Shown here piece by piece: positions 9,966 to 62,514 of a stretch of 64,000 nucleotides of DNA; position 1 is the first letter of the stretch; the number at the start of each line of letters is the position of its first letter. The translations under genes and the position numbers were made by a program. Origin of the DNA: Methanobacteriaceae archaeon. GTDB lineage: Bacteria > Cyanobacteriota > Vampirovibrionia > Gastranaerophilales > Gastranaerophilaceae. The notes below the pieces were generated by a model. It made no database searches and had not been told where the DNA came from. It saw only the letters and a program-made list of their open reading frames with translations. The DNA lies in the NCBI GenBank assembly GCA_963602355.1, contig CAVCIU010000002.1:28223-92222 (forward strand). Reading direction: 5' to 3'.

Positions 9966-10646
9966 ATGAGCTTATTTGAATTTAGAAAAGAAAACAGAAG
10001 ATTATTTTTAAAAATTTTCGGAATAAAGATGAATTTTGTATTACCTTTTGGCGGGAATAACCGAATTATAATCGTCGACAAAAAAGGTAAAGAACACAGA
10101 GTACCATTCATCTGGGGTATAAAAACACATTTTCACGGGGCGAATGCTGTACTAAAAGTTTACAGTCCTATGCCACGATTTGTAAATTGTGATTTTACTT
10201 TTGATGATGAATCAGTAATCGAAATCGGTTCTTCTGATGACTACATTAGAAAAATGAAAGTTATGACAGAAGCTAAAGGTTCTAAACTAATAATTGGCAA
10301 AAACTTTGGATTAAATGATGGATTTTTCCTATTCCATAAAAAAGAAAATAACAAAATTGAAATAGGAAATGACACAAAGGCAAGATTTTTAACAGTTAGA
10401 ACTTGTGATGGACATATAATTAGAGACTTAGAAACAAACGAAATCATAAACCCAGACGGAGATATAAAAATAGGTAACAATGTTTGGATAACAGGCTTTA
10501 ACACTATACTTAAAAATGTAGTTATCCCAGATTATACAATAATTGCAAACAACGCGGTTGTAACAAAAGCCTTTGAAGAGCCATACACAGTAATAGGTGG
10601 CTTACCTGCAAAAGTCGTTAAGCGCGGAGTTAAATGGGAATTTTAA
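9966..10646 (+). CDS. left-handed beta-helix (hexapeptide) acetyltransferase
   Basis: C-terminal hexapeptide repeats IGNNVWITGFNTILKNVVIPDYTIIANNAVV..IGGLPAKVVK. Start uncertain (ATG 10029 is also possible). Confidence 0.7.
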   Translation: MSLFEFRKENRRLFLKIFGIKMNFVLPFGGNNRIIIVDKKGKEHRVPFIWGIKTHFHGANAVLKVYSPMPRFVNCDFTFDDESVIEIGSSDDYIRKMKVMTEAKGSKLIIGKNFGLNDGFFLFHKKENNKIEIGNDTKARFLTVRTCDGHIIRDLETNEIINPDGDIKIGNNVWITGFNTILKNVVIPDYTIIANNAVVTKAFEEPYTVIGGLPAKVVKRGVKWEF

Positions 10647-10696
10647 AAAAATTGTGATAACATAAAATATATAAATATAACTCAAGGAGAAATTTA

Positions 10697-13065: not shown

Positions 13066-14442
13066 ATGGAAAAAGTTAAAAAGATTTTACAAAAAATACC
13101 TTATATATTATTGGGATTGATTTTTATTCTTGGAATTTATTTAAGAACAAAAGTTTATTTAACTAATCAATCTTTTTGGCATGATGAATGCGCACTTGCG
13201 TGGAACATATTAAATAAAAATTATTTAGAACTTTTCCAACCAATGCGATTTTTGCAAGTTGCACCACCAATGTTTTTAATTTATACAAAAATAATTATTG
13301 GATATTTTGGCAAATCTGAACTTGTTTTTAGAATTGTACCATTTGTATCAAGCTTGCTTGCAATGGTGATGTTTTATTTTTTGAGTAAGACCTTGCTTTA
13401 TAGTAAAAAGTCTGTACTTTGCGCATCATTGCTTTTTGCAATAAGTTTTCCATTATATTATTACGCAGGAGAATTTAAACCATATAGCACAGATGTTTTA
13501 TTCTGTATATTTACTATATATATATATCAATATTTGAATAAAGAAAATTTGTTTTTGTATTCACTACTGTTGTCAGCTTTCATTTGGTTTTCGTTCCCGA
13601 CAATGTTTTTGATTGGCGCTATTGCATTGCTTATCGGATTTAGCAGAAATTATACAGGAATAGAAAAACTAAAACTGTTTGTACCACTTTCCGTAAGTGG
13701 AGGATTATTTTATTATTACTATTTTCAAAAAGTTTTTAATATGCAAAAAACAGGTATGATGAACTATTGGAATAGTGAGTTTATTAATCTTGATAACTGG
13801 TTAAATATTTTTCAAAATGCAAATAGCTTTATTTTTTCACCAGAATATATTCTTGCAATATTAATGGTTGTCGGTTTGATAATTTATTTTTACCAAAGAA
13901 GTAGATTTGCTTTATTTTCAGTGGTTACATTAGTTTTAGTTATCGTTGCATCGGCATTTCATGTTTATCCATTTTATGAAAGAATGATATTATTTTTAAT
14001 ACCATTTGCTATTTTATTAGCCTCAAAAGCTACTGATATCAGACATTTTACAAGTTATATTTTACTTTCGGTATTTTTGTATGGTGCGTATCCGCAACTT
14101 GAAAACACTTATAAAAACATTGTTAAAAACAATTTTTATAAAAATAATTCTACACCACGAGAAATGGCATTATATTTAAAAACTAATATTAAAAATAATG
14201 ATATTGTATACGTAAATCAAGATTCAAATAGCGATTATTTGTACTATAAACAAATTTACGGAATAAATAATCAAGAAATAATTAATAACCCTAATATGCT
14301 AAAAAAGGGCGAACATGTATGGTTTTTCTTGCCAAATAATGCAAAAGAAACTTTTGAAAAACACGTAAAAGGCAAATATAACATTTACTACCACAACGTA
14401 AAAGCAAATAGTGGCTTGCTTTACGGAATTAAAGTAAAATAG
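13066..14442 (+). CDS. polytopic GT-C type membrane glycosyltransferase (ArnT/PMT_2-like)
   Basis: Many TM helices with a first-loop FWHDECALAWN (DE motif). Preferred start is ATG 13066; the ORF-track TTG 13048 lies inside a TGCTATAAT extended -10 box. Confidence 0.6.
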   Translation: MEKVKKILQKIPYILLGLIFILGIYLRTKVYLTNQSFWHDECALAWNILNKNYLELFQPMRFLQVAPPMFLIYTKIIIGYFGKSELVFRIVPFVSSLLAMVMFYFLSKTLLYSKKSVLCASLLFAISFPLYYYAGEFKPYSTDVLFCIFTIYIYQYLNKENLFLYSLLLSAFIWFSFPTMFLIGAIALLIGFSRNYTGIEKLKLFVPLSVSGGLFYYYYFQKVFNMQKTGMMNYWNSEFINLDNWLNIFQNANSFIFSPEYILAILMVVGLIIYFYQRSRFALFSVVTLVLVIVASAFHVYPFYERMILFLIPFAILLASKATDIRHFTSYILLSVFLYGAYPQLENTYKNIVKNNFYKNNSTPREMALYLKTNIKNNDIVYVNQDSNSDYLYYKQIYGINNQEIINNPNMLKKGEHVWFFLPNNAKETFEKHVKGKYNIYYHNVKANSGLLYGIKVK

Positions 14443-14582
14443 AAATTCAAAAATATCAAAAATTTAATAAAAAATAAAAATCTCCTCCATACGTATGATG
14501 TCATGGTGAAAAATATCCAATATACTAAATCTGTTAATAAAAAAAATATCAGACGTATTATAAAAGGATAGGGAAAGAGGAA

Positions 14583-15791
14583 ATGGCAATTACTGTAAAT
14601 ACCAATATTCCATCATTGGTAGCACAAAAATGTTTAAACAACGCATCAACAAAGATGAACACAGCAATGGAACGTTTGTCTACAGGTTTGAGAATTAACT
14701 CAGCAAAAGATGATGCAGCAGGTTCAGCAGTAGCAACAAAATTGGACTACAAAATCAGTTCATTATCAGTTGCACAAGATAATGCACAAATGGGCACATC
14801 AATGTTACAAACAACAGAAGGTACATTAGATGTTATTCAATCAAATATGCAACGTATCAGAGACTTAACTGAACAAGCAGCCAACGGTACTTACGGTGAA
14901 GATGCTATGACAGCTGTAAAATCAGAAGTAGCAGCTCGTTTAAAGGAAATCACTCGTATGTCAAATACAGCTGAGTTCAACGGCAAAAAAGTATTAGACG
15001 GAAGTTGCGGTGATATTAACCTTCAAGTTGGTATTGAAAGTAACGATGACAGTATCATTAAACTAGATTCAGCAATTTTCTCATCAACTGCAGCAACAAA
15101 ATTGCTTGATATTGATGATACAAATCACGAATATAATTTTAATGTAAAAGCAGATATTTTTAAATATGAAACAAAAGCAGCAGGTGCAGACCCAGTTGCA
15201 GACCCCGCAGAATACAAATATTATGCGAAAGTAAATAACGATTATATTGAAGTTACTCCTGCAGATGATACGGATTTATCAAAAGGTTGCACAATTGAGT
15301 TCCAAGATGCTGATACAAGCAAAAACTACACCGGAGCAACATTTGCAGATGCTGATACGCTTGCAGAGTTAAAAAACCCAGCATCTACAAAAGTAACAAA
15401 AGAAACTGGCATTGAAGTATCAATGGAAGACGGTATTGCACTTGATTCTTCTTCAACAGAAAAAGAAAATGCAGTAATTGATGATATGTTAAGTTGGGTA
15501 TACGCAAGTGATGCTTTTGCTCAAAAATTCTTAGACAATATCGACTCAGCGATTTCAGAAGTTACAGCAAGAAAAACTGAACTTGGTGCAGCAATGCAAA
15601 GAGTCAATTCAGCAGTTGAAGTAGCACAAACAATGCAAACAAACTTAACTGATGCTGTATCATTAATCAAAGATGCTGATATCGCAGAAGAATCATCAAA
15701 TTACGTAAAAAACCAAATCTTACAACAATCAGCTGCAAGCTTGTTAGCAACAGCTAACCAAACTCCGCAAATCGCATTGCAATTGATTTAG
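14583..15791 (+). CDS. fliC: flagellin
   Basis: Conserved N-terminal block (MERLSTGLRINSAKDDAAG) and C-terminal block (LQQSAASLLATANQTPQIALQLI) around a variable centre. Confidence 0.95.
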   Translation: MAITVNTNIPSLVAQKCLNNASTKMNTAMERLSTGLRINSAKDDAAGSAVATKLDYKISSLSVAQDNAQMGTSMLQTTEGTLDVIQSNMQRIRDLTEQAANGTYGEDAMTAVKSEVAARLKEITRMSNTAEFNGKKVLDGSCGDINLQVGIESNDDSIIKLDSAIFSSTAATKLLDIDDTNHEYNFNVKADIFKYETKAAGADPVADPAEYKYYAKVNNDYIEVTPADDTDLSKGCTIEFQDADTSKNYTGATFADADTLAELKNPASTKVTKETGIEVSMEDGIALDSSSTEKENAVIDDMLSWVYASDAFAQKFLDNIDSAISEVTARKTELGAAMQRVNSAVEVAQTMQTNLTDAVSLIKDADIAEESSNYVKNQILQQSAASLLATANQTPQIALQLI

Positions 15792-40399: not shown

Positions 40400-40427
40400 A
40401 TATCGGCACATCTACATGATATATTTA
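40400..40427 (-). promoter_or_regulatory. sigma-28 (FliA)-type promoter
   Basis: On the minus strand: TAAATATA (40427-40420), 12 nt, GCCGATAT (40407-40400). Consensus is TAAA-N15/16-GCCGATA[AT]. Confidence 0.55.
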
Positions 40428-45211: not shown

Positions 45212-45478
45212 TTAAGCAAATGTATCAAAACCTTCTGCTTTTTTAGTTTTTGCTCTGTGATTTTTTTCAAAAGCATCTGCCATTTGGATTAGCATTTTAT
45301 TTTGTAATTGTTGCATACTCATTTGCTTGTCCATTCTGTGAAGAGATTCCATGTTAGAATTTGGACCAATAGCACTAATTGCATTAATTCTAGCTTGGTT
45401 ACCCATCATCATATTATATTGTGCATCGTGTCTCATTGCTGTTGCTTGCATTAGACCTAATGTATTAATTAATGACAT
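45212..45478 (-). CDS. hypothetical 88-aa helical protein, mini-paralog of the 396-aa protein at 61038-62228
   Basis: Shares N-terminal GL..NQAR..R.HD elements and the extreme C-terminal AEGFDTFA (versus AERGFSLFG). Has its own SD and terminator. Confidence 0.6.
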   Translation of the reverse strand: MSLINTLGLMQATAMRHDAQYNMMMGNQARINAISAIGPNSNMESLHRMDKQMSMQQLQNKMLIQMADAFEKNHRAKTKKAEGFDTFA

Positions 45479-60485: not shown

Positions 60486-60977
60486 CTAATAATCAAGTAT
60501 TTTAACCTTCATGCCACTTTGAAGGTTATAATTTGAATAATCTGGAATGTAATATGGAGTTTGAATTGGAGGAGTAAAGCCAGTAGGCATGCCTCTAAAG
60601 TTATTATAAAAACGTTTTCTTAAACTATTATGATATGGTGAATAACATTGTTGATTATTTTCTCTCATTGCACGTTTTAGCGCTCTGTATCGAGAATATT
60701 CATCACCAGACTGCACAGCACCAAAAGTTGCCTCTTCCATTCTACTTAGACGTTGAGAAGGTGTTTCTGATGAAAAGTTATTGTATAACATTTTTCTTTC
60801 TAAGTTGTTAAATGCTCTTTGAGAATACATGCCCTTTGGCTTGTATATTTTTGGATAAGTTTGGTAATACGTAGGATTAGGGATATATTCTGTAGTTGAG
60901 AAGGAGTAATCGCAAAATCCTACGTTACCTAACAACAAAAAGAAAAATAAAAATGATAGTAAAAAAATATTCTTCAT
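60486..60977 (-). CDS. secreted Tyr/Asn/Pro-rich hypothetical protein
   Basis: Sec signal (MKNIFLLSFLFFFLLLGNVGFC) and an LERKMLYNNFSSETPSQRLSRMEEATFG repeat-like element. Confidence 0.65.
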   Translation of the reverse strand: MKNIFLLSFLFFFLLLGNVGFCDYSFSTTEYIPNPTYYQTYPKIYKPKGMYSQRAFNNLERKMLYNNFSSETPSQRLSRMEEATFGAVQSGDEYSRYRALKRAMRENNQQCYSPYHNSLRKRFYNNFRGMPTGFTPPIQTPYYIPDYSNYNLQSGMKVKILDY

Positions 60978-61037
60978 ATAAAGATTTATACGAAGAATAT
61001 TTTTATTTTTTAATTAGACACTTAGTGAATTTTTGTA

Positions 61038-62228
61038 TTAACCGAATAATGAGAAACCTCTTTCAGCATTTTCTGAAATTAATGATTTCATTGATTCATA
61101 TTCTGTGCAAGCTGCTGAGTATTCAGTTTCTGCTTGTTTTTGTCTTAAATCAAGACCTTTTTCTTTGATTGTCATTTTACCAGTTTCAGCATCATAGTAG
61201 TTTTGAGCAGCTTGTCTTGCAGCATCTCTTCTTGAATAATCGATTGTTTGAATTGTTGAAGTTTCAGTCCAAGTTTCTGTATCAGTTGTACCTTCAGTAG
61301 CAGCTGTGCCTGCGTTATAAGTAGCAACATCACTTAATGAAAGTTGTTGACCATCTTTTGAAAGAATGATTGAACCGTTGATGATTGATTCTTTTAATAA
61401 TTCTGAGTCAGTTTTGCATCTATCTAATAAAGAAGATGAACCTGTTGATTGTGCTGGAGTTGAAGAAGGAGTTTCTTCATAGTAACCGTAAGCTGGATCA
61501 CCGACTTTAGAAGCATCTGGAGTAGCATCAGCTTTACCCATAGAACCAAGAATTTCTTCTAATTTGCTTTGGCTGAAAGCAACTCTAGTGTTGTAGCTAG
61601 AAGTATCAGCTGTTGAAGATTGAGCAAACATTTTAGCTAATCTGTTAGCGCTATAATATTTACCATATTGGCATTCTTGTTCGCCTTCTGGTTGGAAGCC
61701 TGTTAAAGCTTTGTAAGTTGTTTCAGTAGTACTTTTTGTACCATCTGCGTTCCAACCTGTAGCACCAGGATTTTGTGTATCGATTAAGCCTTTGTCGCCT
61801 AATAATTTAACTAATTCAGCAACTGTTTGAGGCATTTGCCAAGCATCGCCACCAGTTGTGTACCATTTCCAAACTTTTTCAGTTGAGTTTGCGTTTGAAT
61901 TTGATACTGCATTTTTTTCTTTAATTTCATAACCAGCATTTCTCAAGTTGTTGTAATCTAAAGAAATGTTGAAGTTCCAGCCACCAGCTGTACCAGCAGT
62001 ACCAGCTGTATTGTATGTTCTAGAACCGTTTGTTGTATTTGTAGTTGTAATATAGTCAGGACCAATGTTATTAGCTTCGTTTAACATATTATTATATTTA
62101 ATAGATATGTTATTAGACATAGCAGTTAAAAGAATTTTTTCATTTGTACAACGCATAGAAGTTAACTCAAGATCATGCATTCTTGATTGTAGAGTTAAAA
62201 GTCTTGCTTGATTTGCTGCTAAACCCAT
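61038..62228 (-). CDS. sigma-28-dependent 396-aa protein with flagellin-like architecture (helical conserved termini, Thr/Ser/Gly/Asn-rich centre)
   Basis: ATG 62228 (MGLAANQARLLTLQSR) follows AGGAAAGGAAAA. The GTG 62261 of the ORF track lies upstream of the predicted transcription start. No signal peptide. Confidence 0.7.
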   Translation of the reverse strand: MGLAANQARLLTLQSRMHDLELTSMRCTNEKILLTAMSNNISIKYNNMLNEANNIGPDYITTTNTTNGSRTYNTAGTAGTAGGWNFNISLDYNNLRNAGYEIKEKNAVSNSNANSTEKVWKWYTTGGDAWQMPQTVAELVKLLGDKGLIDTQNPGATGWNADGTKSTTETTYKALTGFQPEGEQECQYGKYYSANRLAKMFAQSSTADTSSYNTRVAFSQSKLEEILGSMGKADATPDASKVGDPAYGYYEETPSSTPAQSTGSSSLLDRCKTDSELLKESIINGSIILSKDGQQLSLSDVATYNAGTAATEGTTDTETWTETSTIQTIDYSRRDAARQAAQNYYDAETGKMTIKEKGLDLRQKQAETEYSAACTEYESMKSLISENAERGFSLFG

Positions 62229-62251
62229 TACATTTTTCCTTTCCTTTCTAC

Positions 62252-62279
62252 TTATCGGCACACTTGAAGAAAACCTTTA
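62252..62279 (-). promoter_or_regulatory. sigma-28 (FliA)-type promoter
   Basis: On the minus strand: TAAAGGTT (62279-62272), 12 nt, GCCGATAA (62259-62252). Near-identical to the enterobacterial TAAAGTTT-N11-GCCGATAA consensus. Confidence 0.65.
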
Positions 62280-62514
62280 ATGTTAAAATCGCTCAAAACC
62301 ATGCCATGATTGCGTTTTACATGATTTTTTCTTTGATTTTACTGGGTTTCAGACCCTAAAATTTAATTGTAACAGATTGTAAACATTGTATTTTTACGTT
62401 ACATTTCTTAATAAACACGAATAAAAAATCTAAAATAAAACTTCATGAATTTGCCAACTCAAAAAAAAATATTTTATAATTAAATAAATTAATTTAAGGT
62501 AGGAGATTTGGGAT

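Follow-up and report, generated by a model that had tools for sequence, protein, structure and literature searches.

A conserved sigma-28-type promoter in front of a 396-aa gene of a multi-copy family in gut Melainabacteria

In textbooks, a sigma-28 promoter marks a late flagellar gene. In the window, by which we mean the whole 64,000-nucleotide stretch analyzed here, a motif of this kind stands on the minus strand in front of a gene for a 396-aa protein beside glyA. Is it a functional promoter, which sigma factor would read it, and does it place the gene in the regulon of the flagellum?

Read directly from the letters, the motif runs TAAAGGTT, ttcttcaagtgt, GCCGATAA from 62279 down to 62252, with the exact coordinates and letters that the initial annotation had given for a sigma-28-type promoter. 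GCCGATAA is the sigma-28 -10 consensus, and that of the whole promoter is TAAA-N15/16-GCCGATAA. The site has TAAA-N16-GCCGATAA, which equals TAAAG-N15-GCCGATAA when counted after TAAAG and is one base longer than the N15 of E. coli and the enterobacteria. It thus combines a TAAA(G) -35 element, the -10 element GCCGATAA and a TAAA-to-GCCGATAA spacing of about 15 nt, and the -10 element ends 23 nt before the ATG at 62228. The features are as follows.

62295-62303, minus strand: upstream block CATGGTTTT, 16-24 nt 5' of the -35 element; CATG and TTT invariant in the alignment of related loci
62272-62279, minus strand: -35 element TAAAGGTT; TAAAG core invariant in 10/10 aligned upstream regions
62260-62271, minus strand: spacer ttcttcaagtgt, 12 nt between the octamers (16 nt after TAAA); variable columns between invariant boxes; contains GTG 62261
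62252-62259, minus strand: -10 element GCCGATAA; T.TG.CGA invariant, next T and A nearly invariant across orthologues
62243-62246, minus strand: predicted transcription start region, 6-9 nt past the -10 element, placed by the usual sigma-28 geometry
62235-62245, minus strand: leader AGGAAAGGAAA with two GGA motifs, the Shine-Dalgarno sequence; 11-mer invariant in 10/10 aligned regions
61038-62228, minus strand: coding sequence of the 396-aa protein, MG-x-x-A-x-Q-A-R family; N-terminal helix 2-53, C-terminal helix 332-393, variable beta-rich middle
60963-61004, minus strand: terminator-like hairpin, 19 AT-rich base pairs and a U-run; -21 kcal/mol, z-score -4.2
40400-40427, minus strand: second site of the window, TAAATATA-N12-GCCGATAT, 31 nt ahead of an unannotated 102-aa ORF

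The gene start agrees with this layout. ATG 62228, already favored by the initial annotation, is the start because all relatives share M1 and G2, and it is preceded by the Shine-Dalgarno-like AGGAAAGGAAA at 62245-62235. The longer frame from GTG 62261, which had been discarded, begins inside the promoter spacer, and GTG 62261 is therefore not a start codon. A minus-strand scan for sigma-70 promoters returned a single candidate, at 62555-62527 inside glyA about 300 nt upstream, a predicted element that might act as a second promoter of the gene. The CATGGTTTT block could serve as a UP-like element or bind a regulator. At other sites a CATG(N)TTTT string is found again, either about 20 nt 5' of the -35 element or within the spacer (TAAAGAAATCATGGTTTTGAGCCGATAA), the latter for example at C18:7105-7132 (contig C18) and at window positions 40400-40427. 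We also speculate that the AGGAAAGGAAA leader is a putative CsrA-type site; the genome has a csrA gene at C32:3422-3577.

Could the motif be a chance match, or a decayed and non-functional site? The genome is AT-rich and TAAA is frequent in it, and the spacer exceeds the enterobacterial consensus by one base. This explanation is effectively refuted by counts and conservation. The window has two matches to TAAA-N15/16-GCCGATAW, where 0.02 would be expected. In the whole genome (1.82 Mb scanned, 31.8% G+C), the matches number 0 at N13, 1 at N14, 6 at N15, 8 at N16, 3 at N17 and 2 at N18, so that the N16 of the studied site is at least as common as N15. When TAAAG is required, 5 (N15) and 7 (N16) matches are found versus 0-1 at any other spacing, and these 12 strict sites compare with 0 for the reversed-pattern control. 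The matches are also positioned like promoters, 12 of the 14 N15/N16 sites lying between genes, 23-57 nt ahead of an ORF that reads in the same direction, and one-mismatch variants add about 8 sites of the same kind. A position weight matrix (PWM) was trained on the sites that it scores, so only the strict-pattern counts are independent; its matches below about 19 bits are coding-region noise. The genome scan proposed by the initial annotation has thus returned matches that are non-random in spacing, in position and relative to the reversed control.

The surroundings of these sites show a further regularity. At 11 of 21 sites in the genome a GT[AT]AG(G) string starts exactly 7 nt after the -10 element, compared with a background of 1.6% per 16-nt window. 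Judged from their placement in the sequence, such strings could be conserved transcript 5' ends and candidate CsrA sites. A second GGA usually lies at the Shine-Dalgarno sequence. The studied promoter and that of its closest paralogue (C66) share the short AGGAAAGGAAA leader instead.

Conservation of the locus points the same way. Orthologues of the 396-aa protein, 32-87% identical to it, adjoin glyA in other metagenomic contigs and genomes, and both promoter boxes are invariant, with a drifting spacer, even in orthologues that are only 32-42% identical at the protein level. Across ten aligned upstream regions of orthologues or paralogues, TAAAG, T.TG.CGA, the leader AGGAAAGGAAA and the CATG..TTT block 16-24 nt 5' of the -35 element do not vary. 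Orientation, distance to a real gene start and purifying selection at the ten related loci are all as in a sigma-28 promoter. Downstream, the hairpin at 60963-61004 is kept in orthologues with changed arm sequences; a GC-biased terminator scan made no call there. The conserved promoter, leader, single gene and hairpin therefore define the unit as a promoter, a short leader, one gene and a hairpin. The 3' arm of the hairpin holds ATG 60977 of the next ORF (60486-60977, minus strand; 163 aa, with a signal-peptide-like N-terminus). This ORF is conserved at orthologous loci and its overlap with the hairpin is kept in relatives; the hairpin could couple termination to translation of the 163-aa ORF.

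We consider it likely that a functional FliA-type promoter drives the 396-aa gene. RNA polymerase with the FliA of this genome would recognize TAAAG as the -35 and GCCGATAA as the -10 element, and transcription from about 62245 would yield an mRNA with a short leader, probably monocistronic and extending from the 396-aa gene to the hairpin at 61004-60963.

Such a promoter calls for a cognate sigma factor, and the absence of fliA from the genome would have spoken against the initial annotation. The best FliA_WhiG matches sit at two contig ends, those of C80 and C54, whose sequences share an overlap of 55 nt. On TIGR02479 the joined FliA of 273 aa reaches 233.9 bits (cut-off 189.6), and on the FliA model NF005413 it reaches 219.2 bits (cut-off 201); its top NCBIfam match is NF004935 (WhiG), at a score below the cut-off of that model. 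The genome thus encodes a cognate FliA-family sigma factor, intact over C80 and C54. The assembly breaks inside two flagellar-related genes, fliA (C80/C54) and fliF2 (C65/C9), with overlaps of exactly 55 nt in both cases. Both genes are therefore intact, and an automated annotation of this MAG would give them as partial. FlgM (PF04316) was not found in the genome, and none of the small ORFs behind sigma-28-type sites could be called as FlgM.

Instead of FliA, a different alternative sigma factor might recognize the motif, such as the SigB/F/G-type protein at C34:713-1357, which is the next most similar one and the only other FliA-like sigma. Several sigma-70-family genes of the genome do give partial FliA_WhiG matches, and the motif is found at no canonical FliA target of this genome. 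Against this, TAAA-N15/16-GCCGATAA is the consensus of sigma-28 and does not resemble SigB/SigF-type promoters. Related lineages are informative here. We counted the strict motif and its reversed control in a class sample of 151 genomes, in which f1 denotes the GTDB family of the window. Motif exceeds control in four families with FliA (151:22 in f1, 62:10 in f4, 40:6 in f9 and 23:2 in f5), a co-occurrence that is supportive and not proof, as related genomes are not independent samples. Family f3 has neither FliA nor FlhA and shows no enrichment (47:34), although its genomes carry sub-threshold FliA_WhiG sigma factors (E about 1e-36). The exceptions are f7 (1:3) and f6 (10:8), which have FliA and one FlhA with no motif enrichment, and f8, which lacks FliA and yet reaches 6:1 on small numbers.

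Canonical flagellin promoters of sister families carry the same motif. In f4, the flagellin locus L135 has CTAAAGAATCTAGACCATATAGCCGATAT 64 nt upstream of the gene and the flagellins L132 and L133 have one-mismatch sigma-28 sites; f9 and one f1 genus have flagellin sites that are weaker or more distal. We assign the motif to FliA because of its similarity to the consensus, the flagellin promoters in sister lineages and the co-occurrence with FliA, the motif being missing from the flagellar genes of this genome. The flagellin promoters and the counts that track FliA are thus supportive of a FliA motif in this clade, and we regard reading by another sigma factor as very unlikely.

We then asked what the promoters precede. 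About 20 units of the genome share the promoter, and all of them encode unannotated proteins; six sites precede paralogues of the 396-aa protein and three precede a family of 53/54-aa ORFs. A Pfam search with the 396-aa protein, its neighbors and eight other products of the regulon returned no significant family. The 53/54-aa ORFs (MLRKIE[LM]P..N[IV]DNSVEF[IV]LRGAKKRRSMAMA.AR.LTNEQG...) are located at C9:36780-36940, C68 about 840-1000 and C44 about 10507-10670. Each copy stands behind a sigma-28-type site and has no family match, and one lies directly 3' of the flhA2-yidD operon.

The initial annotation had placed the 396-aa gene in the late flagellar regulon and expected other matches of the motif at known class 3 genes. 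Had this been so, the gene would belong to the late (class 3) regulon of the ordinary flagellum and might encode an accessory or secreted protein of the flagellin filament, as would fit the canonical flagellum gene set of this genome and the sigma-28 sites before flagellins in sister families. The scan gave a different result. None of 19 recognizable flagellar and chemotaxis genes tested in the genome (five flagellins, FlgK, FlgL, FliD, two MotA, one MotA/ExbB-type, MCP, FlgB/E/G, both FlhA, csrA and fliA) has a good sigma-28 site within 300 nt. In their upstream regions the highest PWM scores lie between -6.3 and 7.0 bits, versus at least 19.9 bits for true sites, except for the MCP gene, where a 16.5-bit site lies 229 nt away inside a long open frame. 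One-mismatch and PWM scans for sites before flagellar genes added nothing beyond unannotated genes or, under about 19 bits, noise in coding regions. The promoter is thus found before flagellin genes in f4, f9 and one f1 genus, and before none of the flagellin, hook-associated, motor and chemotaxis genes tested in the genome studied here.

The flagellin genes of this genome (window 14583-15791; C1 and C7) have upstream regions of their own kind, without a sigma-28 motif. Several share an upstream string close to [AC][TG]GTCAT[ATG]G[CT]GAA (for the window gene, in 14330-14582), and two also have CTCCTCCA further 5'. The shared string may be another promoter or a regulator site.

The genome holds two flagellar gene sets. 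Its FlhA paralogues score 862 bits (C17, in an operon with FlhB, FliR, FliQ and FliP) and 727 bits (C9). The canonical set comprises FlhA-A (C17:25967-28069) with FlhB/FliPQR, five flagellins, FliD, FliS and FlgK/L. The second set is encoded by an operon in the order FliE (PF02049, 1.6e-15), FliF (PF01514, 4.8e-37), a 343-aa protein, FliH (PF02108, 3.8e-27), FlhA2 (C9:37266-39368) and YidD; it spans C65 (where C65:4943-6883 also belongs to it) and C9 through the 55-nt overlap, and the same operon is present in the flagellin-less genome G024. Divergently adjacent to fliE2 is a 177-aa member of the 396-aa protein's family (C65:4094-4627) with its own sigma-28 site at C65:4682-4709, and another sigma-28 site, C9:36978-37005, follows the operon. 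The description of the 396-aa gene as far from other flagellar genes therefore holds only in part: the same window has a flagellin gene (14583-15791), and the second fliE-fliF-fliH-flhA operon is directly flanked by a paralogue that has this type of promoter. Two flhA entries are also present in the flagellar gene list of ACD20 in the study that described Melainabacteria as flagellated (Di Rienzi et al., 2013; PMC3787301).

We further followed the two sets through the window's own GTDB family, with 41 genera represented by one genome each. A high-scoring FlhA is found in 21 genera, exactly those with Flagellin_N, and nearly all 21 have FliS and FliD. In the remaining 20 genera, flagellin, FliS, FliD and FlhA-A were not found; these keep only the second FlhA and a protein of about 495 aa with the FlhA C-domain alone. 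A protein of this type in the genome studied here (C3:48402-49877, 491 aa) joins an unrelated N-terminal part to only the cytoplasmic C-domain of FlhA (FHIPEP 321-654, E = 1.9e-47), and nearly all 41 genomes have a counterpart. Across the class, families with flagellin carry two FlhA genes; f6, f7 and most genera of f1 carry one. None of the 32 other f1 genomes in the class sample has flagellin, and all keep FliA above cut-off, motif enrichment and 7-19 copies of the 396-aa protein's family; in two of the flagellin-less genomes (G103 and G107), 6 of 19 sites lie 35-55 nt before MG..A.QAR genes. The regulon is thus not lost together with the flagellum. As flagellin-less relatives keep the second FlhA, FliA, the motif and the family, and as the canonical genes of this genome lack the motif, the assignment to a late regulon of the ordinary flagellum lacks support in the form proposed, and we hold it to be improbable.

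What is the family that these promoters serve? The initial annotation had regarded the 396-aa gene as an orphan, and here it was mistaken: the protein has at least 12 paralogues in the genome, GTDB species representatives contain 476 family stretches confirmed by tblastn, and 907 of the 1.84 billion cluster representatives in public data belong to the family. Family members in other genomes carry the same promoter. Lengths range from 103 to 1029 aa, and matches always lie at the extreme N and C termini. A core member of 123 aa is encoded at C8:41107-41478. An AlphaFold2 model of the 396-aa protein (pLDDT 67) is confident only in two terminal helices, residues 2-53 and 332-393. A Foldseek search of this model against the PDB gave no match, and a profile of the family core (hmmsearch) retrieved only coiled-coil noise from PDB sequences. 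No homology to the N- and C-terminal flagellin domains (PF00669/PF00700) was found, an alignment of the family core with the flagellins and FlgL of the genome by hhalign giving a probability of 0.4%, and no Sec signal peptide is evident in the 396-aa sequence. The link to the promoter is not universal for the family, since distant members in f5 and f9 (G004, G017, G041 and G094) have no sigma-28 motif within 110 nt and no flagellar neighbors. Likewise, no sigma-28 site was found upstream of an 88-aa mini-paralogue at window positions 45212-45478. A full-text literature search gave no description of a FliA regulon or of the MG-x-x-A-x-Q-A-R family in these bacteria. Where the tools made no gene calls of their own, the longest ORF was simply taken as the gene.

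Distant lineages of the class share a conserved gene pair, in which at least one family member precedes a Gly/Ser-rich protein (about 284-320 aa) beginning with MSYKNDS or MAYKNDS. It is found at C3:30347-36626 of the genome studied here, at 8594-9947 of L119 (G004) and at 6524-7905 of L120 (G017). The MSYKNDS/MAYKNDS proteins have no Pfam match; the MSYKND partner on C3 is encoded at C3:31273-32127. After the pair on C3 comes a perfect E. coli-type site, TAAAGTTT-N11-GCCGATAA, at C3:31114-31140.

Returning to the FliA-type promoter, the putative FliA regulon of this lineage is uncoupled from the canonical filament genes and travels with FliA and FliE2-FliF2-FliH2-FlhA2. The regulon persists in relatives without ordinary flagellin and therefore may serve a second, undescribed flagellum-like machine. 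More specifically, and only tentatively, this apparatus of gut Melainabacteria (Gastranaerophilales) might consist of FliE2-FliF2-FliH2-FlhA2 with an FlgE/F/G-like protein, have the MG-x-x-A-x-Q-A-R helical-hairpin proteins expressed from FliA promoters as its exported or filament subunits, and form, with FliA, the promoters and the expanded family, a module that outlasted the canonical flagellum in many genera. Several observations speak against the family as the subunits of such an apparatus: f6 and f7 keep FlhA2 and FliA with no family match in a single-sequence search, distant family members have neither the promoter nor flagellar neighbors, and no cap, junction or chaperone genes are recognizable in the flagellin-less genomes.

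The sigma-28 marker is real here, yet it points at about 20 unannotated genes, none of them canonical flagellar, and in this clade it would be misleading to assign a gene to the flagellar regulon by its promoter alone. The module of FliA, promoters, second FlhA/FliF/FliH set and hypervariable multi-copy family survives without flagellin in common Melainabacteria of the human and animal gut. It offers a handle on the surface or extracellular products of uncultured gut bacteria, on the reuse of a flagellar regulator after loss of the flagellum, and on whether a non-flagellin filament or secretion substrate exists, which bears on host recognition. The host receptor TLR5 recognizes a segment of flagellin, and such non-flagellin proteins would lack this segment. 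If our tentative reading is true, the family would be an independent, non-flagellin route to a surface appendage or a secreted repertoire.

These promoters share with the class 3 promoters of sigma-28 (FliA in E. coli and Salmonella, SigD in Bacillus subtilis) the TAAAG and GCCGATAA elements, 15-16 nt after TAAA, a cognate fliA, a gene product with a flagellin-like domain layout and, in sister lineages, a position before true flagellins. They differ in that the sites of this genome stand only before unannotated genes, N16 is as common as N15, and FlgM was not detected. The family in turn resembles flagellin (PF00669 Flagellin_N, PF00700 Flagellin_C) in its conserved extreme-terminal helices, which are predicted to pair, its many paralogues, its sigma-28 promoters and its hypervariable central insert, which ranges from none (in a protein of 123 aa) to more than 900 aa. 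In contrast to this layout, the two have no sequence or profile similarity, the family termini being MGxxAxQAR ... TEY.SVKSLI....F..FG, and the MG-x-x-A-x-Q-A-R family was not found in the flagellated f4.

Dual flagellar systems are another point of comparison. One report (PMC11242183) describes polar and lateral flagella in Vibrio, Aeromonas and Plesiomonas with separate regulators, FliA and FliA-L. As in such systems, two paralogous FlhA and FliF sets are present per genome, and each can be lost independently across relatives; unlike them, a single fliA was found in the genome studied here, and its second set has no recognizable flagellin, FliD or FliS.

Sigma-28 orthologues can also control non-flagellar programs: WhiG controls sporulation in Streptomyces, and sigma-28 controls late genes in Chlamydia. 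The flagellin-less relatives of our bacterium resemble these cases in that a FliA/WhiG-family sigma factor and its consensus promoter are present in genomes without flagellin and would drive other genes. They differ from them in that they keep the FliE/FliF/FliH/FlhA set and in that the main targets are flagellin-like in layout.
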